DNA of 64,000 nt. Source: Alphaproteobacteria bacterium. Its GTDB lineage: Bacteria; Pseudomonadota; Alphaproteobacteria; RF32; CAG-239. The notes under the pieces were generated by a model, which saw nothing but the letters and a program-made list of their open reading frames with translations, searched no databases and was not told the DNA's origin. Positions within the stretch are counted from its first letter, which is position 1; each line of letters starts with the position of its first letter. Positions 1,873-36,769 of this stretch are shown piece by piece. The stretch spans positions 5,175-69,174 of the forward strand of contig SUUV01000005.1 of NCBI GenBank assembly GCA_015062345.1, read 5' to 3'. The translations under genes were made by a program, and so were the position numbers.

Positions 1873-1956
1873 AAAAATAGACCATTTGCTAATTGAATTT
1901 TAACAATATTACTGTAATATAATCCAAACTGTGTTTTAAAATTTTAAGGTGTTAAT

Positions 1957-3279: not shown

Positions 3280-3284
3280 TCGGT

Positions 3285-3317
3285 TAGGGCTCTGTATTAA
3301 CAGAGCCCTAAAATTTA
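3285..3317 (+). terminator. Rho-independent terminator after tolB
   Basis: Hairpin agggctctgt-attaa-cagagccct followed by aaaattt; it sits between convergent genes. Confidence 0.5.
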
Positions 3318-3353
3318 TATCTACTTTCTCTTAGTAAGATTGATTTGTAGAAA

Positions 3354-3833: not shown

Positions 3834-3966
3834 ATGTTTTAATCCTTAAAAATAGTTAAACTTAATTTGAAAGGCAAAAATTTACCTTACAATACGCATC
3901 ATAAACCGTTTTTTTTTTGCAAGTAAAAAGAGTCGTTTAAAGAATTTAAATCAAATTTGAGGTAAA
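3834..3966 (-). promoter_or_regulatory. Conserved family promoter/leader cassette (copy A) with T10 homopolymer (3909-3918)
   Basis: Near-identical to cassettes at 9733-9866, 44814-44953, 45863-45993 and 57547-57694. On the gene strand it reads TTGCAA-(A)n-CGGTT-TATGAT...AAGGA-ATG. The tract is 10 here and 12 in the other four copies. Confidence 0.6.
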
Positions 3967-4045
3967 AAATCATTTGTAAAAAACTTGCTTTTTTAAATCA
4001 ATGTGGTATAGAAAAATAAATTAAAATTTGCTTTAAGGAATTTAT

Positions 4046-6310
4046 ATGAAACAAGAACTCTTGGCGCCGGCAGGTGATATTGAAGCCGGATATGCGGCTC
4101 TGTATTATGGTGCAGATGCGGTTTATTTGGGCTTGCAAAAATTTTCGGCTCGTGCAACTGCTACAAACTTTGATGAACATAATTTAAATCAGTTTACGGC
4201 CTATGCACATCATTTGGGGCGAAAAGTATATGCCGCAATCAATACGGTTGTACAAGAAGATGAACTGCCTGATTTATTAAAAATATTAGATGTTTGTTCA
4301 AAATGCAACATAGATGCGGTTATATTGCAAGATTTGGGCGTGGCCCGTGTCATTAAACAATCGTATCCCGAACTTGAGTTGCACGCCAGTACACAAATGG
4401 CTGTTCATAACAAAGAAGGTGCGTTGTTTTTACAAAGTGTGGGCTTTTCCAGAGTTGTTTTGGCTCGTGAACTGACTTTGCCCGAAATTAAAGAAATCGC
4501 CTCAATTGAAGGTCTGGAAACCGAAGCCTTTATTCATGGTGCGTTGTGCTATTCTTATAGCGGATTATGTCAGTTTTCGGCTCTTGAAATCGGACGCAGT
4601 GCCAACAGGGGAAAATGTTTGTACCCTTGCAGAGCATGTTTTGAAAAAAACGGCATCAACAAACATTTCTTTTCAATGAAAGATATGGCTCTCGGTATTG
4701 ATGTCTTAAAAATGCCGGTTACTTCGCTTAAAATTGAAGGTCGTAAAAAAAGCGCACTTTATGTTGCCGCCGTAACCGATTATTACAGGCATATTTTAGA
4801 CGGCAAGGGGGCAGATTATCAAAAAGAAGAACGCATTAAACAAATTTTTTCTCGTCCGTGGTGTAAGTTTCATTTTAACGGAAAATCAAAAGATATTATC
4901 GACAGAGAGTTTGTCGGACACAGAGGATTAAAAATCGGTAAAATCGGCCGAATTTCAAAACAAGGCATTGAGATAAAGCTAAATCATAAAATCGGTCGGT
5001 TTGACGGTTTGCAAATTGATGTCAAAGGCAATGAAAAACCTTTCGGGTTTTCGATACAGAACATTAAACTGAACTCTAAAAATGTTTTTGAGGCCGCAAC
5101 CGGTGATGTCGTTCAAATCGAACTGCCGAAAAAATATCCAAATCTTGAAAAAGGGCTTGATGTATATCTGGCCTCATCAACCGAAGTTAAGGCATCTTAT
5201 CCGTATAAAAAGCCGAAACAAAATGAGTTTATCAATGGTATCAATCTTGATGTAAAGGTTGAGGTTTATCAAGATAACATATTGGCAAAATGTGATAATT
5301 TTGTTTCAAGTGTTGGCGGAAGCTTTGATAAGGCGCAAGATTTATCAAAAGTAACCTTGGCTTTTAAACAAGCATTTGAGAAAACCGGCGGAACTGAATT
5401 TTCATTAAAATCCATAAGTGTAGAAAACTCAGGTAGACTTTTTGTGCCTGTATCAAAAATCAATGAACTGAGGCGAGATTTATACTCTAAAATTGTGCCT
5501 TGCCACAAAAAGGGAACATTACCGACAATCAGCAAAAAAGAAAATGCCGGCTTTAAGGGGTGGATAATTAAAACCGATGATATAAAATGTTTAGAACAAT
5601 TAAATTTGGCCGATTTTGCAGAAATTGTTTATTTGATAAATCCAAAATCTGATGTTTCCGAACTTAAAAAATTGCCCAAAAACAAAGTGCGTATTGCTTT
5701 ACCTGAAGTTTGCCGTAAACCGAAAGTTTTTGAGCCGATTATAAATTCGCTCATCGAGTGCGGATATAAAAAATGGGAAATCGGCAATTATTGGGGGTTT
5801 AGTGCTTTGCCGACCGAAAAACTTGATATTTCGCTTTCATCATCTGTGTATATGCTAAACTCACAAGCTGTTGAACATGCAAAAGAAATGAAAGTTAAAA
5901 GAGTTTGTTTTTCCATTGAAGATACTTTAAGTAATATTAATCTGTTAAATGAAAAAATTTCCTTAACATCTTGTTTTATCGTATATCAAGATGCACCGCT
6001 GTTTATCAGTGCAGGTTGTATCAGAGATTATGATTGTAAAAACTGCAAAGGCGGGGTTGAAATTGCAGAGCTTAAAAAAGATGGCAGAATATATACGGCC
6101 ATATCCCAAAATTGTCAGTTAATGATGTTTAATGACAAGCCGTTATGTTTTGCTGATGAAGCAAAAAATGTTAAGGCAGATTTTTATCGTATGGACTTTT
6201 GCCATAAAAAATATGATGCGTTTAGGGTAAAACAAATTGCCGATAAGTTGATGAATTTTACAGATATTAACGGTTGTGTAAAAGCCAATATTAACAGTCA
6301 AAAAATTTGA
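4046..6310 (+). CDS. U32 family peptidase (long form with C-terminal extension)
   Basis: 754 aa. N-terminal region typical of U32 peptidases (LLAPAGD...AGADAVYLG...; conserved E..H..C.SYSG.C motif EAFIHGALCYSYSGLC). Confidence 0.75.
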   Translation: MKQELLAPAGDIEAGYAALYYGADAVYLGLQKFSARATATNFDEHNLNQFTAYAHHLGRKVYAAINTVVQEDELPDLLKILDVCSKCNIDAVILQDLGVARVIKQSYPELELHASTQMAVHNKEGALFLQSVGFSRVVLARELTLPEIKEIASIEGLETEAFIHGALCYSYSGLCQFSALEIGRSANRGKCLYPCRACFEKNGINKHFFSMKDMALGIDVLKMPVTSLKIEGRKKSALYVAAVTDYYRHILDGKGADYQKEERIKQIFSRPWCKFHFNGKSKDIIDREFVGHRGLKIGKIGRISKQGIEIKLNHKIGRFDGLQIDVKGNEKPFGFSIQNIKLNSKNVFEAATGDVVQIELPKKYPNLEKGLDVYLASSTEVKASYPYKKPKQNEFINGINLDVKVEVYQDNILAKCDNFVSSVGGSFDKAQDLSKVTLAFKQAFEKTGGTEFSLKSISVENSGRLFVPVSKINELRRDLYSKIVPCHKKGTLPTISKKENAGFKGWIIKTDDIKCLEQLNLADFAEIVYLINPKSDVSELKKLPKNKVRIALPEVCRKPKVFEPIINSLIECGYKKWEIGNYWGFSALPTEKLDISLSSSVYMLNSQAVEHAKEMKVKRVCFSIEDTLSNINLLNEKISLTSCFIVYQDAPLFISAGCIRDYDCKNCKGGVEIAELKKDGRIYTAISQNCQLMMFNDKPLCFADEAKNVKADFYRMDFCHKKYDAFRVKQIADKLMNFTDINGCVKANINSQKI

Positions 6311-6383
6311 TAAAAAGCTTGATATAAAAAAATAAAAGTATAATATGAAACCAATTTTGTAACATTAAAAAAGAAGAGAAAAA

Positions 6384-7124
6384 ATGAAAGAAGAAAAGAA
6401 AAAAGAAACTTTTGGTGAAACCATTAAAACAGTTTTTTTTGCAGTATTGATTGCGGTTGTTATCAGAAGTTTGTTGATTGAGCCGTTCAGAATTCCGTCA
6501 GGGTCCATGTACCCGACTTTGGAAGTGGGAGATTATTTGTTTGTTACCAAATACACATACGGCTACTCAAAACACTCATTTCCGGCAAGTTTGATGCCGA
6601 TTAAGGGCAGAATTTGGGTCTCGGAACCCAAACGCGGTGATATTGTGGTGTTTAAGTTTCCGGTTGATAACAAAACTGATTTTATCAAAAGAGTTGTGGG
6701 GCTTCCCGGTGATACCGTTGAGGTAAGACGAGGAGTTTTATATATAAACGACAAACCGGTTGAGCGAGAAAAAATCGGTGAATATACACTTGATGAGTTT
6801 GTTGTGCGTCCCGAAACATATACCGAATATGAGGAAACTTTGCCCAACGGCGTAAAACACCGCATATTAGAAATTTCGGATTTTGAGCGAAAAGTTGATA
6901 ATACTACAAAAGTTACCGTACCGGAGGGGCACTATTTTGTGATGGGTGACAATCGTGACCGCTCTGATGACAGCAGAGTTAGTGTCGGTTTTGTACCGCT
7001 TGAAAATTTGGTCGGCAAAGCCAGATTTTTGTTCTATTCGCATAACGACAAAGGAGCTTGGTACAAGCCTTGGACTTGGCCGAAGATGGTTCGCTGGTCC
7101 AAAATTTTTGATACATTAAAATAG
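6384..7124 (+). CDS. lepB: Signal peptidase I
   Basis: TM anchor, catalytic Ser box (IPSGSMYPTL), KRVVGLPGDTV and GDNRDRSDDSR motifs. Conserved position upstream of rnc-era. Confidence 0.9.
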   Translation: MKEEKKKETFGETIKTVFFAVLIAVVIRSLLIEPFRIPSGSMYPTLEVGDYLFVTKYTYGYSKHSFPASLMPIKGRIWVSEPKRGDIVVFKFPVDNKTDFIKRVVGLPGDTVEVRRGVLYINDKPVEREKIGEYTLDEFVVRPETYTEYEETLPNGVKHRILEISDFERKVDNTTKVTVPEGHYFVMGDNRDRSDDSRVSVGFVPLENLVGKARFLFYSHNDKGAWYKPWTWPKMVRWSKIFDTLK

Positions 7125-7134
7125 GGCTTAAAAA

Positions 7135-7800
7135 ATGGATAAACTGGAGCAAATTTTAGGCTATCGTTTCAAAAACAAAGCACTTTTAAGGCAAGCGCTT
7201 ACTCATAGCAGTATCACCGGTAATGTGGCAAAAAACTACGAAAGACTTGAGTTTGTCGGTGACAGAGTTTTGGGTATGGCTATGGCGCATTTGCTGTATA
7301 AAATTTTTGATAAAGATGCGGAAGGCTGTTTATCACCGAGACACACTCGTTTGGTCAGGAAAGAAACGGTTGCCGAAGTTGCCTTAAAATTAGGGCTCAA
7401 CGAATATATATCGGCCGAGCCCAAAGAACTTTGCTTTAATGAAAATGTGCTTTGCGATGTAGCCGAAGCCATAATCGGAGCCATTTGTATGGACAGCAAT
7501 TTTGAAACCGCCATAGAATTTGTTGACAGACATTGGAAATATTTGATTAATTCTTCTCAAAGCCCGCTTAAAGATAATAAAACAGCCTTGCAAGAACTTG
7601 CTCATCGCCACAAAGCCGGCAATCCGACTTATGAGACAATCAGAAAAGAGGGAACGGAACACGAACCGTACTTTTTTGTTAAAGTTGTGGTCTCCGAGCT
7701 GGGTGAGGCGGTAGGAAGCGGTAAAAACAAAAAACTTGCCGAACAAGATGCCGCATTGAGAATGATTAAAAAATTGGAAGGTGAATATGCAAAAAAATAA
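7135..7800 (+). CDS. rnc: Ribonuclease III
   Basis: RNase III signature ERLEFVGDRVLG, plus a C-terminal dsRBD (GSGKNKKLAEQDAA). Confidence 0.9.
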   Translation: MDKLEQILGYRFKNKALLRQALTHSSITGNVAKNYERLEFVGDRVLGMAMAHLLYKIFDKDAEGCLSPRHTRLVRKETVAEVALKLGLNEYISAEPKELCFNENVLCDVAEAIIGAICMDSNFETAIEFVDRHWKYLINSSQSPLKDNKTALQELAHRHKAGNPTYETIRKEGTEHEPYFFVKVVVSELGEAVGSGKNKKLAEQDAALRMIKKLEGEYAKK

Positions 7801-8692
7801 ACCTTCAAGAGCCGGATTTGTCAGTCTTATCGGTGCACCCAATGCCGGAAAATCTACCATAACCAACAATTTTGTCGGGTCTAAGGTTTCAATTGTGTCA
7901 CCAAAGGCACAAACCACCAGAACAATTGTCAAAGGTATCGGCATTTATGATAACACACAAATTGTGTTTTTGGACACACCGGGGGTATTTAAGCCCAAGC
8001 GCAGGTTTGACCGAGCTATGGTAGCATCGGCTTGGAGCGGTGTCAATGATGCCGATATTGTAGTTTTGGTTGTTGATGCCAAAAGAGGTTTTGATGATGA
8101 AACCAAAGCGATTGTAAACAAGCTTAACAAAAACAAAATTGAAGCGGTGTTGGTCTTAAATAAGGTAGATTTAATTCAAAAAGAAAAACTGCTTGGCTTA
8201 AGTGCCGAAATTAATCAATCCGGAAATTTTGTTGAAACTTTTATGGTGTCGGCTTTAACGGGACAAAACATTGAAGATTTTTATCAATATCTGGGAGATA
8301 ATTTACCTGAAAGTCCTTGGTATTATCCTGAGGACCAAATATCTGATATGCCGTTAAAACTTTTAACCGCCGAAGTGGTAAGAGAAAAGTTGTTCTTATA
8401 CTTAAGACAAGAATTGCCGTATTCCATTACCGTTGAGCCGGAATTGTGGGAAAGAAGAGAAGACAATTCGGTCAGAGCCGAGATGACAATTTATGTTGAA
8501 AGAGACAGCCAAAAAATTATTGTTTTGGGAAAAGGCGGCTCTATGATTAAAAAAATCGGGCAATCGGCAAGGCATGAATTGGAAGAAATGCTCGAGGACA
8601 GAATACATCTGTTTTTGTTTGTCAAAGTGCGTGAAAATTGGAGCGAAGACCCCGCACGATATGCCGATTGGGGGTTAAATTTTAATAGCTGA
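7781..8692 (+). CDS. era: GTPase Era
   Basis: G1 motif GAPNAGKST, G3 DTPG, NKVD, and a C-terminal KH domain. Overlaps the rnc stop by 20 nt, consistent with the lepB-rnc-era operon. Confidence 0.9.
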   Translation: MNMQKNKPSRAGFVSLIGAPNAGKSTITNNFVGSKVSIVSPKAQTTRTIVKGIGIYDNTQIVFLDTPGVFKPKRRFDRAMVASAWSGVNDADIVVLVVDAKRGFDDETKAIVNKLNKNKIEAVLVLNKVDLIQKEKLLGLSAEINQSGNFVETFMVSALTGQNIEDFYQYLGDNLPESPWYYPEDQISDMPLKLLTAEVVREKLFLYLRQELPYSITVEPELWERREDNSVRAEMTIYVERDSQKIIVLGKGGSMIKKIGQSARHELEEMLEDRIHLFLFVKVRENWSEDPARYADWGLNFNS

Positions 8693-8699
8693 TATGAAA

Positions 8700-8732
8700 A
8701 CCCCCAAGGCCTGATAACAAGCCTTGGGGTAA
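8700..8732. terminator. Bidirectional hairpin terminator between era (+) and an SCPU gene (-)
   Basis: cccaaggc-ctgataacaa-gccttggg. On the minus strand it is followed by GGGGGTTTTCAT. Confidence 0.5.
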
Positions 8733-8752
8733 ACCTTAAAAACATTTAACTC

Positions 8753-9223
8753 TTAGTAAGTAAATGTGATATATGCTGTTCCGTATAAAGCAGAGCCGCT
8801 GCTTATGACAGCATCAGGAGTGATGTTAAGTGAGCCGGTTAATTTTCCGTCAGCATATTTTATGTTGTCAACATAAACACTGTCACCACCTCCTAATTTG
8901 ATTACACTATCAGCATTAAAAGTGGTACCTTCTGGGATATCAGAACAGGTTGACGGAGTTGCAGTCGTTCCATCAAAAACCAACTCATAAGCACCGGCGG
9001 TATCCATTGTAACTGTGCCATTGCTGTTCATTGTGGCGGTCATAGTGCCGGTGTTCTCGGTTTTTTTAACATATAATTTGCCAAATACGAGGCTTGTGCA
9101 ACTAACTTCGGTCGGCAGAATAAATCTGCCTTTGGCAGAGAACTCAGCCGCGGCTTTAGTTGCGGCATTTGCGGTATTTGTTGCCAAGAGGGCTACACAA
9201 GATAAAATAAAATATTTTTTCAT
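8753..9223 (-). CDS. Secreted SCPU-domain family protein, paralog 2 (second gene of a tandem pair)
   Basis: Signal peptide MKKYFILSCVALLATNTANA. Motifs CTSLVFGKLYVKK and C-terminal AYITFTY. It lies 24 nt downstream of paralog 3 with no separate cassette, so it is probably co-transcribed. Confidence 0.55.
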   Translation of the reverse strand: MKKYFILSCVALLATNTANAATKAAAEFSAKGRFILPTEVSCTSLVFGKLYVKKTENTGTMTATMNSNGTVTMDTAGAYELVFDGTTATPSTCSDIPEGTTFNADSVIKLGGGDSVYVDNIKYADGKLTGSLNITPDAVISSGSALYGTAYITFTY

Positions 9224-9246
9224 CAGTTTATCCTTTCATATCTTAA

Positions 9247-9732
9247 TTATTCATAGGTAAATTGCACAACAGCAGTACCTGTTAATTCAGAGCCGTCTAA
9301 GACAGTATCATCACCATCATAATAGATGCTAAGTTTTCCGGTTAATTTACCGTCGGCATATTTTATGCTATTAACAAAAATTTTTTCTGCCTCATCGAGA
9401 TAAATCTTGTTATCATCACCAACTGTAAAAGTAGCACCATCAGGTAAACCTGTACAAGTTCCCGGAGTGCCTTGACCATCAAATAGCAAGGAATACTTAC
9501 TAGGCGAGGTGTTTGTAATTGTGCCGTTCACGTCCATCATAAAATAGGAAACACCAGAATAAGTACTATCAGTCATTCCAAAATACAAAGTACCAAAATC
9601 GATAGGCGTGCATTCAATAATGGTTGGTTCAATGATGGTAGCAGAAGCTTTAAGGTTGCTTGTTCCATCGGTGGCATTGGCTGTGGAGGCAGCCATCAAA
9701 GCCACAGCGCTCAAAAGAAAATATTTTCTCAT
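9247..9732 (-). CDS. Secreted SCPU-domain family protein, paralog 3
   Basis: MRKYFLLSAVALMAASTANA signal; CTPIDFGTLYFG; IKYADGKLTGKL; C-terminal AVVQFTYE. Confidence 0.6.
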   Translation of the reverse strand: MRKYFLLSAVALMAASTANATDGTSNLKASATIIEPTIIECTPIDFGTLYFGMTDSTYSGVSYFMMDVNGTITNTSPSKYSLLFDGQGTPGTCTGLPDGATFTVGDDNKIYLDEAEKIFVNSIKYADGKLTGKLSIYYDGDDTVLDGSELTGTAVVQFTYE

Positions 9733-9866
9733 ATGTTTTAATCCTTAAAAAAAGTTAAACTTAATTTGAAAGGTGCAAAAATTTACCTTTCACATCACAT
9801 CATAAACCGTTTTTTTTTTTTGCAAGTAAAAAGAGTCGTTTAAAGAATTTAAATCAAATTTGAGGT
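9733..9866 (-). promoter_or_regulatory. Conserved family promoter/leader cassette (copy B) with T12 homopolymer (9810-9821)
   Basis: Same cassette as copy A; the tract is 12 nt. Confidence 0.6.
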
Positions 9867-9870
9867 AGAG

Positions 9871-10140
9871 GTGCTGTCTCCTTTACTATCATACCGGTGC
9901 CCAAGCTTTAGCTTGGAATAGACACCGGTATTTAAGGGAACAATTTAGCTATATTACCACCTGGACTCCGGCATCAAGTGCCGGAGTGACAGTGAGGAGT
10001 CGGACTCCGGTATCTTCGTATCGGAGTGACAGTTAGGAGGTATGTTGCAAAGTATGAGGCTAAAAACAAATATTTTCCGATTTTAAATAAAAGTCATTTT
10101 TCGTCCTGCACTGCGTGTCAGGTCGAAAACGCATCTGATT
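9871..10140. repeat. Structured ~270-bp repeat element, left copy of an inverted pair (partner 45595-45850)
   Basis: Reverse-complement match to 45595-45850 over roughly 250-270 bp with few mismatches. It contains nested hairpins (accggtg[cccaagc-ttta-gcttgg]aatagacaccggt) and two CCGGCATCAAGTGCCGG-AGTGACAGTGAGGAG units. Confidence 0.7.
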
Positions 10141-10228
10141 TTGAAATGCGTTAGCAATGCTTCTGATTATTACTAATTCAAAGTCCCCTTTTTGCATAAA
10201 AGGGGACAGGTCAAAGAGAAATACAATT

Positions 10229-13200
10229 TTATTTTTGTTTTGTTATAGTACCGCCTGAGGATATATCTTCACCGGTTAGCGGTTTTAACAAACCGGAAGA
10301 AACATTATCATCAGTAACCGTCGGCTTCTTATTTTTTCTGTTGGCCGATTTTGGCTTAACGATTGTACCGCTTGGTGCAATTTTCGGACGATAAGAAACG
10401 GTATTGCTGTCAGACTTGGTGTTTGCTGTCGGCTTTTCCAATATAACATTTGGCGCATCAGCCGCATTTACTTCTTCATCTGTCGAATCTGCAACGGTAA
10501 ACTTACTTCTTTTTGCCGGTTGTTCCGTGTTGTCTTTTAAGATTAATAACGGTTTTGAAGCATCTTGTATCGGCGCGGATTTTGGCAAAATTTGAGAAAT
10601 TTCTCCTTCTTCCAAGATAATAATTTTTGAGTCTTGTTTATCATTATCTTTTAGTAAATTTTCATCTTCTTGCTCGTTTTCCTGAGATTCTTCTTTTTCT
10701 TTTTGAGCTGCTTTCAAGGCTTCTTGCTTTTTGATATTTTCATCTTCTTCTTTACGAACAATATCTTTGGCATAATCAAACAAATCTTGCATTGCTTGGT
10801 TAAGAGTTTGCATTTCGGTTTCAATTTTTGCAGATGTCTCTTTGAGCAAATCAAATTGCAATTCCATATGCGAAATGTCTTCTTTAAGTTCAATTTCGTT
10901 TTTGTTGTTTAAGGCCTTATTATGCAAATCGGCAATATCTCTCAATGAGGTTTCAATTTTGTTTTTATAATCGGCCACTTTGGGCTCGTTATCCAAAATA
11001 ACCAGCGAATTAATGTCAATTAATCTTTTAACATATGCGTTTAATGTGTCTTGATAATTAAGACCTTTATTAAGCGAGTTATCATAAGTGTTTTTAACCA
11101 ATGCATAATTTTCATTTGCCAAATTCTTAATGTCAGTAATATGGTGAGCTTCAATTTCTCTTTTCATATTATTAAGTTCAGATTCGAAAACTTCTGTTTT
11201 TGCATTAATTTGCGTTATCTGTTCATCAGCAAACTCTTGCTTAGCCAGATTTTGCATTTTCAACAATTCAGACAACATATCTTCGGCAATTTTTAACGAA
11301 CTGTCAAATTTGTTTTTAGATGCTACATTAGAACTTATTTTCGCATACTTTTTAATATTTGGTAACATTTCTTTTTCAAGATTGTTTTTGAGCTTTTCAA
11401 CCATATCTTGAGCTGAGTTCATTCTGTTATTAAGGTCTTCAATTCGAGCCTTTTCGGCTGCCTCTTGCTCCAGACGAACTTTTTCCCAGTAGGTATCATA
11501 TTTGTCTTTCAATGCAGAGCTGTTAATCACTAAATTCGGATTATTAAGCGAATCTGTCCACTTATACTCAATCGGAACAATTTTCTCTTTTAACTGATTG
11601 TATGTTAAGGCAAAATCTAAATTAACATTCCAATCGGTTAAATCTGCACTTCCTTTTGCGGTAACAATGGCGCGGTTTGAGTCCATATGAGCATTTTTGA
11701 TTGATATATTACCATTTTTGATGTCAAAATCAGCTTTTATATTGTAAAAGTTTGTTTCACCGCTTTGCAAGTTTGTTCTTAACATTTCATACAAACCGTC
11801 AGAGTGAGTTCTGCTTTTAACATCTTTTTCAATTGCATCTAAATCCCAACCCTTAAAGGCAGAATCTGCTATTTCAACAAAGGCTGAGCCGTTCAAACCT
11901 TTCACAAAGTTTTCTTCCGAAGTAACCGGTGCTATAAACTCAACCGTTGCATTTAGCAATCCGTCGGTAAACTCATATTTTTTACCGCCGAAATCGGATA
12001 TGTCGGCATCTTTTATATCAAATTTTGCTTTTATGCTCGGGGTGGCATTTATATCAATAGCAATGTCGGCATTATATTTTGCATTATCTTGTGTTGCCGA
12101 TATGTTTTTGATGTCAATTAAGCCTTGTTTTATGCTGATATCTGCTTTGGTGTTTTCAAAATTATGCCCGTTTATACTGAAATTATCGGCCGAAAATTTG
12201 CCGTCAAGTTCAAAAGTTTTATAAAATCCGTAATCAATTTTGACATTTTCATAAGTCGGTCTTTTCAAAAAGTTTAATGAAGTGTCAATGGTTTTTGATT
12301 TTTTGACTTGCTTAATGTTTAAATTTTCCGGATTGTAAATAAAACGGTTAAATTCAAACTTATTGGCATGCAAATTGGCCATAATTTTAGGAAAATCATT
12401 GATTGTAACCGAAAAATCACCGGCAAAATTGTTTGAACCGATAAAAGCATCAACATTATTTACCGACCAATTGTTATTATTTCCTTTAAGGTCGGCTTTA
12501 AATGTAAATATGTTTGCAGCCATCTGTTGCGGGTTATATTTATATCCGATACGATTAACAAAATCAACAAAATCAGGATATCTGAACTCAATATTGCCTC
12601 GATAATTTACCATTCCGTCCGCATTAAATATTTGTCCCGCATAAACCGAACTTAATTTATCAAGTGTAGTAATGGCTTTGATGTTAATATTATTAATATT
12701 GCCGCTGAAAATTCCTTTTGCATTAATATTTTGAGCGTCGGCAATAAGCTTTACTTTAGGAAGCGGTAAAGAAAATTTTTCAACAAAATCTTTAAACTTG
12801 GCAGTCTTGAAATTGTATTTTATGTTTTTAAAGTGTGGCATATCGGCGATATTATCCACATTGCCCGATAAGGACAAAACAGAATTGTTGATATTTTCAA
12901 TATTAAATTTTTCTATTTTAATATTTTCTTCGTCGGTAGTAAATTTTAAGGCAGATTTTTCAAATGCGATGCCGTTATAAACACCTAAATCTAAACTTGT
13001 ATTTACATTAAAATCAAAATTGTTCAAAAATTTAAACTTGTTTAATACCAATTTAAGTCTTTCGTTAAACGGAAGTTTCTTCTCATCTTCGTTTAAGTGC
13101 GGTATATAATTATCAAAGTTAATGCTATCGGCTTTTAACGATATAAACACATTGTTTCTTTTATCTCTTGCAATTCCGATTAAACCTTCAATCGAGGTTT

Positions 13201-20473: not shown

Positions 20474-21484
20474 ATGCTAAAAACTGCTGAATTTGTGTCT
20501 TTGGGACACCCTGATAAAACTGCCGATTATATTTCATCTTACATACTTGACTGCTTAATCAAACAAGATGCTTTTGTTCGTTATGCCGTTGAAGTTATGA
20601 TAAAAGACAATATCGTAATTTTAGGTGGTGAAGTATGCGGCAAAACAGATTTAACCGATATTGACAATATGGTTAAAGAAGCTTTGCGTCAAATCGGTTA
20701 TGATGAGCAATATGCTCTTATTTGGGGCGATAATGCCCTTAATATCAACAAAATTAAGGTGATTAATCTTATCGGCTGTCAATCTTGTGAAATTTCACAA
20801 GGTATCACTTCGGGCGGGTGGGGTGACCAAGGTGTTTTTGCCGGATATGCCTGTAAAGGTGAGGGCGCTTTACCAAAAGAGCTTTATCTGGCAAAAAAAC
20901 TAAATCGTGAACTCTACAATATGGCGCTTAAAAGTAATAATTTTGGGCTTGATATAAAAACTCAAATCACTATTGATAACAATGGAATTATTCAAACAGC
21001 AATTGTTGCCATACCGATGTTAAATAAGGTTGACTTATCTGAAACTATAACATCAATTTTGCAAGAAAAACCTAAGCAACTTATCGTCAATGGTACCGGA
21101 ATTTATAAATGTCATTCATCGGTGGCCGATTGCGGAGTTACGGGCCGTAAGCTTGCTTGTGATTTTTATTCGTTATCTTGTCCCGTGGGAGGTGGCTCAC
21201 CTTGGGCAAAAGATGCCACTAAAGCTGATGTTTCGTTAAATATTCTGGCTCGTAAATTGGCGGTTGAAAATCTGCAAGACAATGATGAAGTTTTTGTATA
21301 TTTATCATCTTGTATAGGTAAAGAAAAATTGCCCAGTGCAGTTGTGAAAACTATTAAAGATGGTGTTTGTACACAAAAATCACTGGACGGAGATTTTTCT
21401 CCTAAAACCGTAATTTCAAGTTTAGGTCTTAATAAACCCGTATTTGCTAAGCTTTGTCGCAATGGTATCGTAAACATAGATTAG
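20474..21484 (+). CDS. Divergent, short MetK-like protein (S-adenosylmethionine synthetase homolog)
   Basis: The N-terminus aligns with the MetK N-terminal region (SLGHPDKTADYISSYILDCLIKQD...VMIKDNIVILGGEV). Recognisable G.GDQG.FAGYA and GGGSPWAKDATKADVS motifs are present. At 336 aa it is about 50 aa shorter than canonical MetK. Confidence 0.55.
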   Translation: MLKTAEFVSLGHPDKTADYISSYILDCLIKQDAFVRYAVEVMIKDNIVILGGEVCGKTDLTDIDNMVKEALRQIGYDEQYALIWGDNALNINKIKVINLIGCQSCEISQGITSGGWGDQGVFAGYACKGEGALPKELYLAKKLNRELYNMALKSNNFGLDIKTQITIDNNGIIQTAIVAIPMLNKVDLSETITSILQEKPKQLIVNGTGIYKCHSSVADCGVTGRKLACDFYSLSCPVGGGSPWAKDATKADVSLNILARKLAVENLQDNDEVFVYLSSCIGKEKLPSAVVKTIKDGVCTQKSLDGDFSPKTVISSLGLNKPVFAKLCRNGIVNID

Positions 21485-22210: not shown

Positions 22211-22657
22211 TTAATATGCAATTAAACGAGCCGGATTACCAAACAACAACATACATCTTTGCCCCGGTGTCAATAATGTATCAGAGCCTTGAGTTAAGGT
22301 CATAACTTGTCCGTTGTTAAGCTTTACGACATACTCATAACCGCCTTGAGAAGACAAAGCACCTTGCGCTGCATTTCCTGCCATACCTCCCAAAACAGCA
22401 CCGCCGATTGCACCCAAATTGTGTGCGGTTGACCCGCTACCGATAGAATATCCGGCGACACCGCCTGCGACACTGCCGATAATTGTTCCCAATCCGTTTT
22501 CCGTTTTAACACTAACCGGACGGACACTTAAAACCGAGCATTCTGAGGCTGCATTTGCTCGACCTACCGAACTTGTTGCATATTGATTTGAGTTAATGTC
22601 AGCTTGACATCCTGCCAACATTACCACACCTAAAAATGCACCCAAACTTTTTTTCAT
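22211..22657 (-). CDS. Glycine-zipper outer-membrane lipoprotein (SlyB / 17-kDa-antigen-like)
   Basis: Lipobox LAGC. Gly-zipper segment GTIIGSVAGGVAGYSIGSG...GAIGGAVLGGMAGNAAQG. Confidence 0.65.
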   Translation of the reverse strand: MKKSLGAFLGVVMLAGCQADINSNQYATSSVGRANAASECSVLSVRPVSVKTENGLGTIIGSVAGGVAGYSIGSGSTAHNLGAIGGAVLGGMAGNAAQGALSSQGGYEYVVKLNNGQVMTLTQGSDTLLTPGQRCMLLFGNPARLIAY

Positions 22658-23473: not shown

Positions 23474-23875
23474 TTATGGATTTAGATTATACACAAGTTC
23501 GGAAATCTCATTTTCCCATACAGTGCCGATTTGCCCCTTAAAACGCAAATACAACTCCTTAAAACTGCAAGGGATTTTTTGCCTTGCAATAACTTCATCA
23601 GTACTGAGATTGGTCATTTTGCAATCTATCCATATTGATGTATGAAGTCTGTTTTCCTTTAATGCCCCAGAGGCACAATATTTGGCACGAGTAAGCAGGC
23701 ACATATCAACCGTGGCTGCAAACTCTTTTACCTTCGGGGTTATATCAAAAGCAATTTTCTCTACATATATGCGCTGTTTTTTCTTTTTATCAAAGATTTC
23801 TAAGCGCAAAAACGCATTTTTGTCTTCAGTTAGCGAACAAATGCGTGCGCAAAAATTTTTACTTTCCTTTTTCAT
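23474..23875 (-). CDS. Hypothetical protein (133 aa)
   Basis: Intact ORF with a terminator downstream; no recognisable motif. Confidence 0.35.
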   Translation of the reverse strand: MKKESKNFCARICSLTEDKNAFLRLEIFDKKKKQRIYVEKIAFDITPKVKEFAATVDMCLLTRAKYCASGALKENRLHTSIWIDCKMTNLSTDEVIARQKIPCSFKELYLRFKGQIGTVWENEISELVYNLNP

Positions 23876-29472: not shown

Positions 29473-30315
29473 TTAAATAATTTCGTTGTATCTAAGTAAA
29501 ATATGATTAAACCATTTTTCTTGAAATTCGACCTCTTGCTCAATTGTTTTATCATCTAAATCATAGGCTTGAGGTACCACAATTAATTTATCATCGTCAT
29601 CATCTGTGCGCCGAATAACACCAATGCATCTGCCGACATATTTTTCAAGCGGTATGTCTTCCATCAAAACATAAGCATCTAATTCTTCACCGTCACCGGA
29701 TTCTGTAAACGGCAGATATCCGTAATTTACCGGATATTCATATCCGTATTTAGGATGTTTACTTGATTTCGGACGGTCAATAGTGACCATAACCTGATTA
29801 CCGATATAATGTGTCGTTGATAAATTATGCAAAACAACCGGATAATCATCCATATCGTTCCATTGTTCATATTGCTGTGCCAAAGTATCAAAGGTGTTTT
29901 CATCAATCATTAATGCCGACAAATCGTTTTTTGAGCGCTCCAAAGTTCTTTGTTTGGCAATATCCATATCGCAGTGAATATAATGAAACACAACATCATC
30001 GGTTAAGGTTTTTGCCCAATCGTAATATTCTTGTCGTTTTCGATATGTCCAAAAACCATAATCTAAAATTACATCTTTTCCGGCTTTGATAAATTCGACG
30101 GTTTGTTTTTTAATTTGCTCATCGATTATTTTGTATTTGGTTTGGAAATCATCAGGATTTCTGCCAAAATTTGCCATCATCAGTTCATCATGTGTAAAGC
30201 GCACCGCCAAAATTTCTTTTTCTAACTTTTTAGCAATTGTTGTTTTACCAAAGCCCATAAAACCGACCATTAAATGTATTGTTGCCATATCTGCTCTCCG
30301 TATTTGTGTTACCAA
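29473..30315 (-). CDS. Fusion protein: P-loop small-molecule-kinase-like (AAA_33/zeta-like) domain plus truncated family-I pyrophosphatase-like domain
   Basis: Walker A GFMGFGKTT is followed by DYGFW. The C-terminal ~110 aa aligns with family-I PPase (YPVNYGYLPFTESGDGEELDAYVL...GVIRRTDDDDDKLIVVP), but the VDR/Lys region is missing. Confidence 0.5.
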   Translation of the reverse strand: MVTQIRRADMATIHLMVGFMGFGKTTIAKKLEKEILAVRFTHDELMMANFGRNPDDFQTKYKIIDEQIKKQTVEFIKAGKDVILDYGFWTYRKRQEYYDWAKTLTDDVVFHYIHCDMDIAKQRTLERSKNDLSALMIDENTFDTLAQQYEQWNDMDDYPVVLHNLSTTHYIGNQVMVTIDRPKSSKHPKYGYEYPVNYGYLPFTESGDGEELDAYVLMEDIPLEKYVGRCIGVIRRTDDDDDKLIVVPQAYDLDDKTIEQEVEFQEKWFNHILLRYNEII

Positions 30316-30435: not shown

Positions 30436-30512
30436 TGGTCGGGACGAGAGGATTTGAACCTCCGACTTCTTGCACCCCATGCAAGCGCTCTACCAGGCTG
30501 AACTACGTCCCG
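30436..30512 (-). tRNA. tRNA-Pro (anticodon GGG)
   Basis: The reverse complement gives a 77-nt cloverleaf: CGGGACG acceptor, GGTTCAAATCC T-arm, anticodon loop AUGGGGU, encoded CCA end. Confidence 0.8.
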
Positions 30513-30728
30513 TTATTATAACATAAATATACTTTTATCTCTTGGTGCAAGAAGTCTCCGACTTCTTGTCTTGCTTCGTAAAATTCGCTTTTATAAAAAG
30601 CTCATTAACTCCGCTTCGGTCAAAGAACTTATAACATTCGCTTCGTTCGCTTCTCGCTTCTCGCTCATTAACAAGTTCTTTCTTGAAATTAGATAAACTA
30701 TCCGTTGGGAAACTTTATCTAATTTCAA

Positions 30729-30778
30729 CCCCATGCAAGCGCTCTACCAGGCTGAACTACGTCCCGTTATTATAACAT
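30729..30778 (-). repeat. Duplicated fragment of tRNA-Pro (5' 38 nt of the tRNA plus 12 nt of flank)
   Basis: Exact copy of 30475-30524. Further direct repeats of aacattcgcttcgttcgcttctcgct...caagttcttt lie at ~30613-30670 and ~30774-30815. An inverted tRNA-derived palindrome lies at 30545-30572. Confidence 0.7.
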
Positions 30779-30848
30779 TCGCTTCGTTCGCTTCTCGCTC
30801 ATTACAAGTTCTTTAAGTTAAAAGCACCAATCACGGTGCTTCAAACAG

Positions 30849-31142: not shown

Positions 31143-31982
31143 TCATCTGGAACTTCTGCAATTACTTAAATAACGACACGCAAGCCTTTGATTGTAAGCG
31201 GTTTTATACAAATCGGATAATACTTTTTTTACATCGTTATCTAAAAACTTCATACCTTGTCTTGCAATCTTATAAGGTATGCCGAATTTTGCTTCAGCAA
31301 CGGCACCGGCAATGCAGGCGAGGGTATCTGTATCACCGCCTAATGATACCGCATTTCGAACTGCATCTTCATATGAGTTGGCATTTAATACACTTACAAT
31401 TGCAGGGACAAAAGTTTTTTTGCAAGTATAATAAAATTTATCCATTTTTTCTCGTTCTTGCTCAACAGTGGTAGTAAAATCGTATCCGTGTTGATTTCCG
31501 ATTTCGATAATTCTATCATTAAAGTTATAATGACCCGATAGGGCACAATGTATAATTTTTACATAAGCAGATACCGCATTGATACTGTCTTCATGATTAT
31601 GGGTTACACAAGTGAATTCAATGGCTTTATCAAGAGCCATTTTAGTATTCCTTTCAACAAACGGAATAGGGCTCACACGCATCAAACAACCATTTGTTTT
31701 GGCTTGATAAGGTTGTCTGTTTTCATTATTTACCCAAGCCATAAATCCGGAAGAAAAGGCAGCGTGTCCTGATGGATTTGTATTGTTAATATATTTTTTT
31801 GCCCAAAGCACAAGTTTTTCTTCGGCACTTCCGCCATTTATAACCCAATCGGCAGCAGCACAAGTCAAAATTGTATCATCTGTGAACTGACATTTATCAT
31901 CAAATAATTCAAAATTTTTCGACTTAATGTTATTAAACTCGAATCTGGAACCGATTATATCACCTAAAATTGCACCGTACAT
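31143..31982 (-). CDS. ADP-ribosylglycohydrolase-family protein
   Basis: N-terminal MYGAILGDIIGSRFEF and FTDDTILT motifs of the DraG/ARH family; 279 aa. Confidence 0.7.
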   Translation of the reverse strand: MYGAILGDIIGSRFEFNNIKSKNFELFDDKCQFTDDTILTCAAADWVINGGSAEEKLVLWAKKYINNTNPSGHAAFSSGFMAWVNNENRQPYQAKTNGCLMRVSPIPFVERNTKMALDKAIEFTCVTHNHEDSINAVSAYVKIIHCALSGHYNFNDRIIEIGNQHGYDFTTTVEQEREKMDKFYYTCKKTFVPAIVSVLNANSYEDAVRNAVSLGGDTDTLACIAGAVAEAKFGIPYKIARQGMKFLDNDVKKVLSDLYKTAYNQRLACRYLSNCRSSR

Positions 31983-33765: not shown

Positions 33766-34778
33766 TTTGCTTTCCTTGTGTCAAAAGCATCTCTAACACC
33801 CTCACCTATAAAAATCAGCATACTTAACAAACTTGACAATACAATAAAAATCGTTACCCCAATCCATGGAGCTTGTAAGTTGTCTTTTCCTTGTCTGACC
33901 AAATCACCAAGTGAGGGATAATCTCCGGATAAGCCCAAACCCAAAAAATCGAGCGAAGTTAAAGCTACTATCGATTCTGATAAAATAAACGGAATAAATG
34001 TAACACTGGTTACCAATGCATTAGGTAATATATGCTTAAATATAATTCTAAAGTTGCTCACACCTAAGGCTTTTGCGGCTTTTACATATTCAAAATTGCG
34101 AGTTCGTAAAAACTCGGCTCTTACCATAGAAGTTAAAGAAGTCCATGAAAAAAGCATCAAAATTATCAACAAAGTCCAAAAGTTAGGTAAAAAGACACTT
34201 GCAATGATAATTAAGATAAAAAGTTGTGGTAAAGACTCCCACACTTCAATGAATCGTTGCAAAATTATATCGGTTTTACCGCCGAAATATCCCTGAACAG
34301 CGCCAATAACAATACCGATAAGCGATGACACAAATGTCAATATAAAAGCAAATACAACCGACAATCTGATACCATACAGGATGCGAGCCACAATATCCCT
34401 TCCCTCATCATCGGTACCGAGCCAATGCGTTTTATCTGGTTTGGTCGGAGCCGGAGCATCAATTTCGTAGTCAACCGTATTGTAAGAAAATGGTATAATC
34501 GGCATTATCATCCAACCGTTATTTTGTATATTTGATACAATCAGCGGGTCTTTATAATCGGCAGGTGTAGGAAAATCACCACCGAAAAACTCGTCTGTAT
34601 ATTCGGTAAATATCGGAAAATACAGCTCATTTTCATATTTTATCACCAATGGTTTATCATTGGCTAAAAGTTCGGAAAATAACGATAAAATAAAAACAAT
34701 CATAAACAAGACCAAAGCCGTAAGTGCCCGTTTATTATTTTTAAATGATGCTATTTTTCTTTTTAATACCGGATTCAT
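33762..34778 (-). CDS. ABC transporter permease (OppC/YejE-like)
   Basis: 338 aa with 6 TM segments and an N-terminal periplasmic loop. Overlaps the ATPase gene start by 4 nt. Confidence 0.75.
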   Translation of the reverse strand: MNPVLKRKIASFKNNKRALTALVLFMIVFILSLFSELLANDKPLVIKYENELYFPIFTEYTDEFFGGDFPTPADYKDPLIVSNIQNNGWMIMPIIPFSYNTVDYEIDAPAPTKPDKTHWLGTDDEGRDIVARILYGIRLSVVFAFILTFVSSLIGIVIGAVQGYFGGKTDIILQRFIEVWESLPQLFILIIIASVFLPNFWTLLIILMLFSWTSLTSMVRAEFLRTRNFEYVKAAKALGVSNFRIIFKHILPNALVTSVTFIPFILSESIVALTSLDFLGLGLSGDYPSLGDLVRQGKDNLQAPWIGVTIFIVLSSLLSMLIFIGEGVRDAFDTRKAK

Positions 34779-36769
34779 TAATTTTCCTTATTTTGCATCA
34801 AATTGTGGTTTTTTAAGGTCGGAATATGGTACTCAAATGTATCATTGGCTTTTTTATCGGTTTTTTCCTTTATAATATCAACCTTGTTCATATCATTTTT
34901 GTTCAACGAGAGCCAGTTTTGATACCATTTATTAAATATATTAATATTGTTTTTTATTTCATTAGGTTTAATTTCTCTTTGCTTAAGTTCTTTAACGATT
35001 TTGTTTCTGATACTTGTGCTAAAACCAAGTTCGCTTAAATTATCACATACATTAGCATTATACAAAAAATTATTTACGACATCGGTTGATGTGCATATCT
35101 TGTTATTTACCGTAAATTTTTTAATCTGAGGTGATTTAATTGCCAGAGCAACCATTTTATCATAGATAAATCTTTGAGAAAAATTTGTATTTTTGGTGTC
35201 GGCAAAATTATGATTTGCTCCGACACCGCTTATAATCAGAACTGTTTTATCCGAAAGATTAGCAGCTTCGAGCTTATCAACAAATTCTTGCAATTTGCCG
35301 TATAAACATCTTGTTTGCTCGGTATAAGATTTGTATTTAAGCTCATTTTTATTATCTGCAATCCACGGCAGATTGTCCATATTAACCCATTTTTCACGAG
35401 GTTTAATGCGGCAAAATTCATCATATATAAACATATCTGACGGAATGTCCGCATATACAAAATATGCTTTTCGTCCGGTATCGGATAGTATGTTTTCAGC
35501 TAGGACATCAAATGTTTTTATCGAATTAATCACATACAAATTGTTATAATTTATGCCAACCAGAGGAAGCTTTTCAGGCTCGGAAAATATCTTTAAAAAT
35601 CTGTATAAAGGAGCCAAATTTGAAATATTCATACTGGCCACCCATTCCGCAAACAAAAGTTGTGTACGACTTATTACCGAAATTCCGCTATCATATACAT
35701 TTACGGGACGATTTATTTTTTCCACACATCGGTCCACATTAAATTTATGATTTTTGTGGCATATGTCAATCCCTCTTGATTTGTATGCCGAAACATTATA
35801 TCCGGCTTGTTTGAAACTATCAAACAATTGATTATTTTGTAAGAAAATATGCTCATCATTGGTGTTAAAAAACTTCCAGTACCTGCTTAACAACATTGTG
35901 TTAAGTATGTGTTTTTTCGGTTCTTGATTGCTGTTGGTGTTAACCAGTTGAACAACATCTAAAAATTGGTCATCTTGTTTTGCATATGTATTTGGAAAAA
36001 TCTCAAATTTATTTTTAGCTAAAAATCCGGTAGCAACATTGAATGTACTTTTAGATAACAAGCTATCATCATTGGCAAAATATTTGTACGAGGCAAAATT
36101 CGGTAGCATAATATAGATGAACTTATTATCATGTTTAATATTAGGTTTGTTTTCTTGCAAATTGTTTTGCTCAATAAAATCGTGTTGTAATTTATATTCC
36201 GAATAATCGTGGCCGATAATTCCGATAAAAGCAATTAAAAATAAAAAAACATATATCGAAAATATTTTTAACGATGCCTTAAAAGCAATCCAAATAAACA
36301 AAATTGTTATAATCAGAGCCAAGACAACCACAGAAGATGTGTATAAAAATGTGGGCGTAAATTTGCCTAAATAAGAGCCCAAAAAATTGCCTATAAAACT
36401 TTTTGAATCCGATTGATAAAACTGATTAAAAAGTGTAATTACAAACCAATAAGTCAGCAATGCACAAACAATGTTTTGTAATGTCGGACACTTATAAAAA
36501 AACCCGATTACAACAACGGAAAACAAGCAAATAAAGAACAAAAGCAACAAAATTTCATAAAACACCATACCGTTATGAGTAAAAAGTGCCATATTTCCCG
36601 ATGTTGCAAACAAAACCATATTTATTGACAGCAACAAAAAAACATACAGGCTTTTTAGTATAAAGCCGATAGTTGCTTTTGATATTTTAATTTTTTCAGG
36701 AACTTTACAAGCTCTTGAAAATTTTTCGGAATCAAAAGTGAGCGGAGCTCTAAAGCGTCGTCTTTGCAT
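34778..36769 (-). CDS. Polytopic membrane protein with large C-terminal extracytoplasmic domain (possibly phosphotransferase/sulfatase-like)
   Basis: 663 aa. About 5 N-terminal TM helices, then a ~450-aa hydrophilic domain. I could not place a confident family motif. Confidence 0.35.
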   Translation of the reverse strand: MQRRRFRAPLTFDSEKFSRACKVPEKIKISKATIGFILKSLYVFLLLSINMVLFATSGNMALFTHNGMVFYEILLLLFFICLFSVVVIGFFYKCPTLQNIVCALLTYWFVITLFNQFYQSDSKSFIGNFLGSYLGKFTPTFLYTSSVVVLALIITILFIWIAFKASLKIFSIYVFLFLIAFIGIIGHDYSEYKLQHDFIEQNNLQENKPNIKHDNKFIYIMLPNFASYKYFANDDSLLSKSTFNVATGFLAKNKFEIFPNTYAKQDDQFLDVVQLVNTNSNQEPKKHILNTMLLSRYWKFFNTNDEHIFLQNNQLFDSFKQAGYNVSAYKSRGIDICHKNHKFNVDRCVEKINRPVNVYDSGISVISRTQLLFAEWVASMNISNLAPLYRFLKIFSEPEKLPLVGINYNNLYVINSIKTFDVLAENILSDTGRKAYFVYADIPSDMFIYDEFCRIKPREKWVNMDNLPWIADNKNELKYKSYTEQTRCLYGKLQEFVDKLEAANLSDKTVLIISGVGANHNFADTKNTNFSQRFIYDKMVALAIKSPQIKKFTVNNKICTSTDVVNNFLYNANVCDNLSELGFSTSIRNKIVKELKQREIKPNEIKNNINIFNKWYQNWLSLNKNDMNKVDIIKEKTDKKANDTFEYHIPTLKNHNLMQNKEN

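Follow-up and report, generated by a model that had tools for sequence, protein, structure and literature searches.

The gene considered here lies on the (-) strand of a 64,000-nucleotide stretch of contig SUUV01000005.1 from an Alphaproteobacteria bacterium; the whole stretch is called the window below. It encodes a P-loop kinase joined to a small domain that resembles inorganic pyrophosphatase (PPase), which we call the mini-PPase. We tentatively argue, with less than even confidence, that the product is a bifunctional cytoplasmic enzyme acting on a nucleotide-type substrate, and that it is neither a housekeeping PPase nor a toxin. Judged from their sequences, both domains have intact catalytic residues and are under strong purifying selection. 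An initial annotation of this DNA had proposed a nucleotide- or metabolite-modifying enzyme as one option, and that is the direction to which the evidence points.

The fusion of a kinase to a PPase fold, as first annotated, is real. Both halves score above their Pfam cut-offs, and an AlphaFold2 (AF2) model on 75 homologues is a compact two-domain structure (predicted local distance difference test (pLDDT) 93.4, predicted TM-score (pTM) 0.89) whose halves find their expected folds with Foldseek. For the C-terminal half the Pfam match is PF00719 (Pyrophosphatase) at aa 192-268 in the numbering of the 280-aa open reading frame (ORF), with E 2.1e-9 and 37.8 bits against a cut-off of 23.5. This match spans only profile positions 32-111 of 153. 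The model of the C-domain retrieves 1ipw at E 1.1e-6, and 1faj, 3eiz and others at E of about 1e-6. DSSP places its barrel strands at 165-172, 188-196, 202-207, 216-227 and 234-238, a predicted pattern that fits an intact OB-type five-stranded barrel. Profile alignment of the mini-PPase to the E. coli and window PPases has an hhalign probability of 97%. A phmmer search of the PDB with the window protein finds family-I PPases at E 1.6e-6. The 75-sequence profile finds only canonical family-I PPases there, at E of about 1e-7 or weaker, and very weak kinase matches. None of these sequence and profile searches of the PDB found a solved structure that belongs to this kinase/mini-PPase subfamily.

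Residues were mapped onto E. coli PPase with MAFFT and with a global profile-profile hhalign alignment, which agree. Conservation was counted over 80 family members from many phyla. Strand beta1 is retained: VTIDRPKSSKHPKY aligns with E. coli VVIEIPANADPIKY, so D171 equals E20 and K180 corresponds approximately to K29. Further equivalents are Y185 = Y51, Y189 = Y55, D229/D230 = D97, D232 = D102 and K234 = K104. The metal-binding carboxylates of the E. coli enzyme (E20, D65, D70, D97, D102) are all matched, by D171, D199, D204, D229/D230 and D232, in 79-80 of the 80 sequences; the Asp-rich metal sites are kept, as had been noted. The signature D65-G-D67-P-V-D70, which we take to hold metal ligands and the general base, has its counterpart at D199 to D204, and the segment D97...D102-A-K104, with metal ligands and the phosphate-binding Lys, has its counterpart at D229 to K234. 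The D67 position is Glu in nearly all mini-PPases (E201, 77/80), a conservative change. The mini-PPase signature fails at this third position of the PROSITE PPase pattern, which we assume to be D-[SGDN]-D-[PE]-[LIVMF]-D-[LIVMGAC]. The full set conserved in 79-80 of 80 is D171, R172, H178, Y185, N188, Y189, G190, D199, D204, G219, R227, D230, D232, D233, K234, F255, Q256, E257 and F260.

Seventeen residues are absent after K180, at E. coli E31-M49, the beta2-beta3 hairpin with E31 and R43. Helix A is short, and the domain has no counterpart of the E. coli sequence past about residue 145 (beta8 and helix B). The Y141 and K142 positions hold hydrophobic residues (V/L) in both alignments. The earlier claim of a missing N-terminal substrate-binding stretch is therefore only partly right: part of the substrate-binding apparatus is gone, but beta1 is kept, and what was lost is the hairpin inside the domain together with its C-terminal third. 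In the E. coli and yeast enzymes we take the carboxylates to bind metals and activate water, K29, Y55 and K104 to hold the attacked phosphate, and R43, Y141 and K142 to hold the leaving-group (P1) phosphate. If the aligned residues have these roles, the catalytic engine is retained and the canonical leaving-group phosphate site (E31, R43, Y141, K142) is lost. The basic residues R172, H178 and R227 are newly invariant in mini-PPases.

It is worth considering whether the mini-PPase is nonetheless a minimal but genuine inorganic PPase that removes pyrophosphate (PPi) locally, with the kinase fusion a convenience of co-expression and no substrate shared. All of the metal ligands and the Y55 and K104 equivalents are present, K29 mostly so, and the invariant basic residues R172, H178, R227 and K234 equal those of canonical PPases in number. 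The module is found in reduced genomes of the Candidate Phyla Radiation (CPR) and DPANN, where a core function would be expected, and both NCBI and JGI use the name inorganic diphosphatase. Its NUDIX partners, described below, are of the MutT/RppH type, and such enzymes release PPi. However, R43, Y141, K142 and E31 are missing and D67 is systematically Glu. The same genome has a full-length ppa, correctly annotated as a separate and genuine PPase gene (22770/22836-23387 (+), PF00719 E 2.6e-59, profile positions 1-152), about 6 kb away. The NCBIfam equivalog cut-offs are missed by far, with 32 bits against 200 for PRK01250 and 27.7 against 246 for PRK02230; the stand-alone mini-PPase P0211 reaches 35.7-35.8 bits against the NCBIfam PPase equivalogs. 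We argue from the nearby ppa and the score of 32 bits against 200 that this is not the housekeeping PPase. In addition, the P-loop kinase, GNAT, VOC and creatininase partners make no PPi. Kinase and PPase have become linked several times and in either order, and this speaks for a common task. A genuine PPase is a serious contender that we still consider unlikely.

The N-terminal half contains the Walker A motif GFMGFGKTT and belongs to the AAA_33 group, in agreement with the initial annotation. Pfam AAA_33 matches aa 14-150 of the 280-aa ORF with E 4.4e-17 and 63.2 bits against a cut-off of 27. Across 75 fusion proteins the residues G9, G14, K15, T16, D34, D76, R85, R114 and R118 are invariant, and the pattern GxxxxGK[ST] is present in every one (G9-x4-G14-K15-T16). 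The catalytic kit of polynucleotide kinase (PNK)/AAA_33 kinases is complete: P-loop K15/T16, the putative catalytic base D34 after strand 2, D76, and R114/R118 of the lid RxxxR. We take the T4 Pnk counterparts to be K15/S16, D35 and R122/R126. The kinase half also has weak similarity to dNK and deoxyguanosine kinase. Analogies with APS kinase and sulfate activation, or with PPK2 and polyphosphate, were dropped, as the window protein has no Pfam match to APS_kinase or PPK2.

The kinase's best PHROGs family is polynucleotide kinase phrog_505 (E 5e-11, residues 1-142 aligned to 1-142), and Foldseek matches the kinase domain of the AF2 model to those of PFKFB and mammalian PNKP (3zvl) and to many viral polynucleotide kinases. 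One can imagine from this a polynucleotide end-healing enzyme like T4 Pnkp or mammalian PNKP. The kinase would act on 5'-OH ends of RNA or DNA, the mini-PPase would replace the HAD phosphatase and process another end (a 3'-phosphate or a 5'-di/triphosphate), and the NUDIX of relatives would be an RppH-like 5' pyrophosphohydrolase. The layout of kinase first and phosphohydrolase second is that of T4 Pnkp, the NUDIX partner resembles BdRppH, and the PPase fold is an OB-type barrel. The acceptor site speaks against it. T4 Pnk R38, which we believe from T4 and Cth Pnkp to bind the polynucleotide acceptor, is replaced by an invariant Met, M37, three residues past the catalytic Asp D34 in the 75 sequences. 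PFKFB, a sugar-phosphate kinase, scores equal to PNKP in Foldseek. An RNA ligase, Hen1 or other repair partner is absent from all of the roughly 95 loci examined, and most mini-PPases stand alone amid genes for small-molecule enzymes. End healing therefore seems improbable to us.

The fusion had been called unusual. Relative to the literature it is, but it is common in nature. Full-text searches found no paper on the mini-PPase family. The full-length protein has 1273 database relatives, and domain make-up was tallied over the best 120 of them (90%-identity clusters). All 120 carry both domains, at 54-98% identity. The few listed with a source name are metagenome-assembled genomes labelled Alphaproteobacteria bacterium, and the contig and record names of relatives indicate gut samples from humans and animals (Hadza, roe deer, goat, sheep, yak). 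An extra C-terminal NUDIX is found in 22/120 of the relatives listed and an N-terminal GNAT in 1/120. Four of the 120 (P0117-P0120) have the opposite order, PPase then kinase, with the same kinase family, and two more loci are permuted too (L015, L018). There is also a split version: at locus L016 a 112-aa mini-PPase (5181-5519 (-)) and a 158-aa kinase (6001-6477 (+)) are encoded on opposite strands with under 500 nt between them, and this kinase is 49% identical to the window kinase domain. Searched alone against 1.8 billion cluster representatives, the kinase domain gives 215 matches at E < 1e-10. Most of these relatives are stand-alone proteins of 155-170 aa, one of them named 'ATP-binding protein'. 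Some carry a NUDIX domain but no PPase (P0242, P0249), and some are joined to DJ-1/PfpI, to GNAT or to an MTAP-like nucleoside phosphorylase.

The mini-PPase is found much more widely. When one genome per GTDB species was scanned, at least 474 stretches encoded relatives, and the C-terminal ~110 aa alone was matched at 47-63% identity. Hosts include Clostridia, Bacilli, Saccharibacteria and other CPR, Latescibacterota, Chloroflexota, Gammaproteobacteria and one Woesearchaeote (DPANN). Most of these loci encode a stand-alone mini-PPase of 110-125 aa, typically ~111. Elsewhere it is fused to an N-terminal NUDIX (without a kinase in L027, L047, L061 and others), to other P-loop kinases, or to GNAT, VOC/glyoxalase or creatininase. 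A search seeded with one stand-alone member gives at least 8000 clusters at 90% identity, among which the two listed with a name are 'inorganic diphosphatase/pyrophosphatase'. Cultured bacteria carry the family on plasmids as well, namely C. acetobutylicum (pSOL1), Priestia megaterium, Phaeobacter inhibens, Listeria, Enterococcus, S. suis and L. plantarum. The plasmid proteins all bear the homology-based name inorganic diphosphatase, and beside them lie GNATs or alpha/beta hydrolases, or else a radical-SAM/MATE cluster. In one of these loci (L099, Phaeobacter inhibens pP72_b, 1235-10312) a stand-alone mini-PPase lies amid same-strand genes for a radical SAM protein, two hypotheticals, a GNAT, a MATE efflux protein, an alcohol dehydrogenase and a methyltransferase, which looks like a cluster for small-molecule biosynthesis or export. 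Since the NCBIfam cut-offs are missed, the PDB searches gave no member and no paper was found, the whole protein appears to be claimed by no well-characterised family.

We argue that the kinase, the mini-PPase and NUDIX form one functional module. The domain arrangements point to this because fusions occur in both orders, separate genes lie adjacent, and each domain is also fused to NUDIX. The coupling of kinase and PPase follows from the repeated order-independent fusion and the split-gene arrangement, and independent fusions of the mini-PPase to other P-loop kinases (SKI-like in L019, AAA_33-like in L041) have the same character. The NUDIX domains fused to either partner are MutT/Ap4A-hydrolase/RppH-like, and the predicted structure is nearest MutT, Ap4A hydrolase CT771 and RppH (BdRppH). 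A three-domain relative is predicted by its best models to be one compact unit (pLDDT 91, pTM 0.84). In locus L014 a 578-aa relative (2513-4249) consists of the kinase, the mini-PPase and two NUDIX domains; a NUDIX-containing ORF precedes it and a P-loop ORF comes after. Where the mini-PPase stands alone, the gene most often found directly beside it encodes a NUDIX. The enrichment among immediate same-strand neighbours is mild (NUDIX 8/92, GNAT 7/92, methyltransferases 5/92).

The nucleotide flavour of the module is suggested by the type of NUDIX, the fusion to an MTAP-like phosphorylase and the weak similarity to dNK and deoxyguanosine kinase. In the mechanism we propose, the mini-PPase would be an Mg2+-dependent phosphoanhydride hydrolase whose leaving-group pocket is either open or rebuilt with R172, H178 and R227. 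From such a pocket it would follow that the enzyme strips the terminal phosphate from an organic di- or triphosphate, for example a nucleoside diphosphate or triphosphate (NDP/NTP) or a 5'-polyphosphate end, or alternatively that it clears PPi from a partner NUDIX. The kinase would phosphorylate the corresponding free hydroxyl of a nucleoside-like or 5'-end acceptor. The kinase (from X-OH), the mini-PPase (from X-PP) and the NUDIX of relatives (from X-PPP or N-PP-X) would in this way all yield one and the same 5'-monophosphate. NAD salvage by a nicotinamide riboside kinase and a NadM-type Nudix was also considered and set aside: the NadM-Nudix similarity is weak (E ~1e-6, far below cut-offs) and the predicted structure favours the MutT/Ap4A/RppH type.

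A bolder form of this argument is that the mini-PPase is no inorganic PPase at all. It would be a new class of terminal phosphohydrolase that arose from the PPase fold and has an opened pocket, acting on organic di- and triphosphates such as NDPs or 5'-diphosphorylated RNA. Together with the PNK-like kinase and the MutT/RppH-like NUDIX it would make the monophosphate from the un-, di- and triphosphorylated forms of one nucleotide or 5' end. We regard this full version as speculative and rather doubtful.

It must be noted that several points weigh against a nucleotide-directed bifunctional enzyme. Its substrate is drawn from domain partnerships, and R172, H178 and R227 could rebuild a PPi site, so that plain PPi hydrolysis is conceivable. 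A purely nucleotide scheme does not fit the GNAT, VOC/glyoxalase and creatininase fusions or the GNAT, methyltransferase and alpha/beta hydrolase neighbours, and the DJ-1 fusions and 'detox-like' plasmid neighbourhoods likewise lie outside it. These misfits may partly reflect accidents of neighbourhood, or a broader role in detoxification and metabolite damage control. The same list includes the invariant M37, the triple-fusion models, confident in only 2 of 5, and the lack of a conserved operon, also for stand-alone mini-PPases when 915 neighbouring ORFs from 80 loci were clustered all against all.

The promiscuity of the fusions, to many unrelated enzyme families, could also mean that the PPase-like domain is not catalytic. 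Family-I PPases are obligate oligomers, so the domain might be an oligomerisation scaffold, or a module that senses PPi or phosphate and regulates the attached enzyme. Yet the catalytic carboxylates, Tyr and Lys are near-absolutely conserved across phyla in the 80 sequences, as one would predict for a working catalyst. Regulation in cis also has no target in the majority of members, which stand alone at ~111 aa. We consider this scenario quite improbable, and a catalytic mini-PPase remains our reading.

The initial annotation had also raised a toxin-like activity and placed the gene at a tRNA recombination hotspot. A zeta-toxin-like kinase toxin or defence component acquired at such a hotspot is, in our view, scarcely credible. 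There is weak similarity to Zeta_toxin (E 2.6e-4) and a weak PADLOC VakA match (E 2.8e-4, 19.5 bits), but Zeta_toxin (PF06414) scores 20.9 bits, under its gathering score of 22.3, and PADLOC-DB gives no significant defence-system match. As had been remarked, no small antitoxin-like ORF adjoins the gene in the window, and none recurs in homologous loci. The gene does adjoin tRNA-Pro, with a duplicated tRNA fragment, and its context varies between genomes. However, the tRNA neighbour is restricted to contigs encoding the identical protein; around a 75%-identical homologue and at ten further loci the neighbours differ and no tRNA adjoins the gene. The adjacency is species-specific.

Nor are the repeats the att-like scars they were taken for. 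An exact 51-nt direct repeat (30474-30524 / 30728-30778) is made up of the 5' half of tRNA-Pro(ggg) and the 12 nt before it, and another exact repeat, of 30 nt, lies at 30629-30658 / 30770-30799, both between tRNA-Ser and tRNA-Pro. Integrases leave a duplication of the tRNA 3' end. The repeats are a small local duplication that left a tRNA pseudo-fragment, not a 3'-end att site, and no integrase turned up among the neighbouring genes scanned. The GC content of the gene region matches the surrounding DNA and is uniform across the window. Core genes (lptF/G, lptD, surA, ksgA, ppa, metK) flank it, and the family is broad and stable in gut Alphaproteobacteria at 55-98% identity. A tRNA-linked island was rejected as relevant on account of the restriction of the tRNA neighbour to identical-protein contigs, the unremarkable GC and the core-gene flanks. 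The window gene is an ordinary enzyme gene of the chromosome, neither mobile nor coding for a toxin or the housekeeping PPase.

The gene model is summarised in the table. The mechanical ORF at 29473-30315 (-) is 280 aa long and opens at TTG 30315, and the likely start, as read from the sequence, is the ATG at 30288. The 271-aa model is also called on 7 metagenome contigs with an identical protein, and the cluster representative (P0001) is 271 aa and 98% identical to the window protein. With more than 1200 homologues this is not a chance ORF. The gene order runs AsmA, M20 peptidase, MetK, Ppa, KsgA, SurA, LptD, LptF/G and then the kinase/mini-PPase gene, which lptF/G adjoins downstream. Beyond it lie tRNA-Pro, tRNA-Ser, an ADP-ribosylglycohydrolase and an oligopeptide ABC transporter. 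The window thus reads as ordinary core chromosome. A hairpin followed by a T run lies directly 3' of tRNA-Pro, and the gene probably has its own promoter.

Table. Coordinates of the kinase/mini-PPase gene, its domains and motifs, and the adjoining tRNA in the window
Feature	Position	Strand	Basis or remark
Kinase/mini-PPase coding sequence, 271 aa	29476..30288	(-)	stop codon 29473-29475; ORF list, same product on 7 metagenome contigs
GGAG Shine-Dalgarno-like motif	30296..30299	(-)	7 nt 5' of ATG 30288; read from sequence
N-terminal P-loop kinase domain, aa 1-156, AAA_33 / polynucleotide-kinase-like	29821..30288	(-)	Pfam, PHROGs, Foldseek, 75-sequence alignment
Walker A GFMGFGKT, aa 9-16	30241..30264	(-)	sequence; G9, G14, K15, T16 invariant
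C-terminal mini-PPase domain, aa ~160-266, five-stranded barrel, one helix and one short strand	29491..29811	(-)	Pfam, DSSP, Foldseek, hhalign
D171-R-P-K-S-S-K-H178-P-K180, end of beta1 and start of shortened loop	29749..29778	(-)	MAFFT, hhalign; D171 79/80, R172 80/80, H178 80/80
D199-G-E201-E-L-D204, equivalent to PPase signature D65-G-D67-P-V-D70	29677..29694	(-)	D199 79/80, E201 77/80, D204 80/80
D229-D-D-D232-D233-K234, equivalent to E. coli D97...D102-A-K104 with a 2-residue deletion	29587..29604	(-)	D230 79/80, D232 79/80, D233 80/80, K234 80/80
tRNA-Pro(ggg)	30436-30512	(-)	next feature upstream of kinase/mini-PPase gene

A few other observations concern the neighbours. The ADP-ribosylglycohydrolase gene (31143-31982 (-), PF03747 E 1.6e-29) lies just past the two tRNAs, and a link to it was rejected since none of the ~95 related loci has such a gene. 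In loci L005 (6717-6980) and L006 (524-787) an 87-aa SemiSWEET (MtN3_slv/PQ-loop) lies 21 nt upstream of a kinase-PPase-NUDIX gene, with a phosphoribosyl pyrophosphate synthetase gene divergent from it. A scheme of uptake and trapping by SemiSWEET and kinase was dropped, as this arrangement is confined to the L005/L006 lineage. The S-adenosylmethionine synthetase ORF of the window (20474-21484 (+)) is 336 aa and matches the central and C-terminal MetK domains weakly; a typical bacterial MetK is longer, at ~384 aa. Three ORFs have no Pfam match at E <= 1e-5: 34778-36769 (-) of 663 aa, 23474-23875 (-) of 133 aa and 22211-22657 (-) of 148 aa. The 663-aa ORF stands at the head of the oligopeptide-type ABC transporter operon, and its product may be a divergent substrate-binding protein.

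The significance of the gene lies mostly in the family it exposes. The mini-PPases are a very large group found in gut bacteria, in CPR/DPANN symbionts and on plasmids of cultured Firmicutes and Roseobacters, and every annotated entry that we encountered is an 'inorganic diphosphatase' by homology. The family is widespread and probably over-annotated. Its recurrent, order-independent fusions with a PNK-like kinase and NUDIX define a three-component module, and cultured hosts exist in C. acetobutylicum, P. megaterium, Phaeobacter and Listeria. Should the substrate be something other than PPi, an annotation in wide use is wrong and PPase-fold chemistry gains a new branch; if the terminal phosphohydrolase reading is true, thousands of 'inorganic diphosphatase' entries are mis-annotated. 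If the substrate is PPi, this would be the smallest known design of a soluble PPase.

The nearest known system for the C-terminal half is family-I PPase (PF00719; E. coli Ppa, 1ipw/1ino). The two share the barrel fold, the NYG motif, the acidic cluster D65/D70/D97/D102, with E20 as Asp, and the equivalents of Y51/Y55 and K104, and the mini-PPase scores above the Pfam gathering threshold. Unlike family-I PPase it is ~105 aa rather than ~175, with no beta2-beta3 hairpin (E31 and R43 gone) and a short helix A. Its Y141/K142 positions are hydrophobic, D67 is Glu, and it has the invariant R172, H178 and R227 and an FQE motif. The stand-alone 'inorganic diphosphatases' of ~111 aa belong to the same family as the window C-domain and have identical invariant residues. 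The plasmid examples WP_010890780.1 (C. acetobutylicum pSOL1), WP_053488509.1 (Priestia megaterium) and WP_102859924.1 (Phaeobacter inhibens) are ~41-51% identical. In contrast to the window protein they lack the kinase; their annotation comes from homology alone, and our literature searches found no experimental work on them.

For the fusion as a whole, the logic of an N-terminal P-loop kinase with a phosphohydrolase is that of T4 Pnkp, mammalian PNKP and bacterial Pnkp. The spacing of the P-loop Lys/Thr, D34 (D35 in T4) and the lid RxxxR is equivalent to that of T4 Pnk. The window phosphohydrolase differs in being a PPase-fold barrel and neither a HAD (DxDxT) nor a calcineurin-like domain. 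M37 stands in place of the acceptor-binding Arg, and there are no ligase or Hen1 partners. PFKFB is the other comparison. Foldseek ranks its kinase domain with the best structural matches (TM-score 0.43-0.46 normalised to the query), and it too is a kinase fused to a phosphohydrolase, in which the two act on the same metabolite. Unlike the window protein, PFKFB is a eukaryotic regulatory enzyme, its phosphatase has the histidine-phosphatase fold, and the identity is 15-17%.

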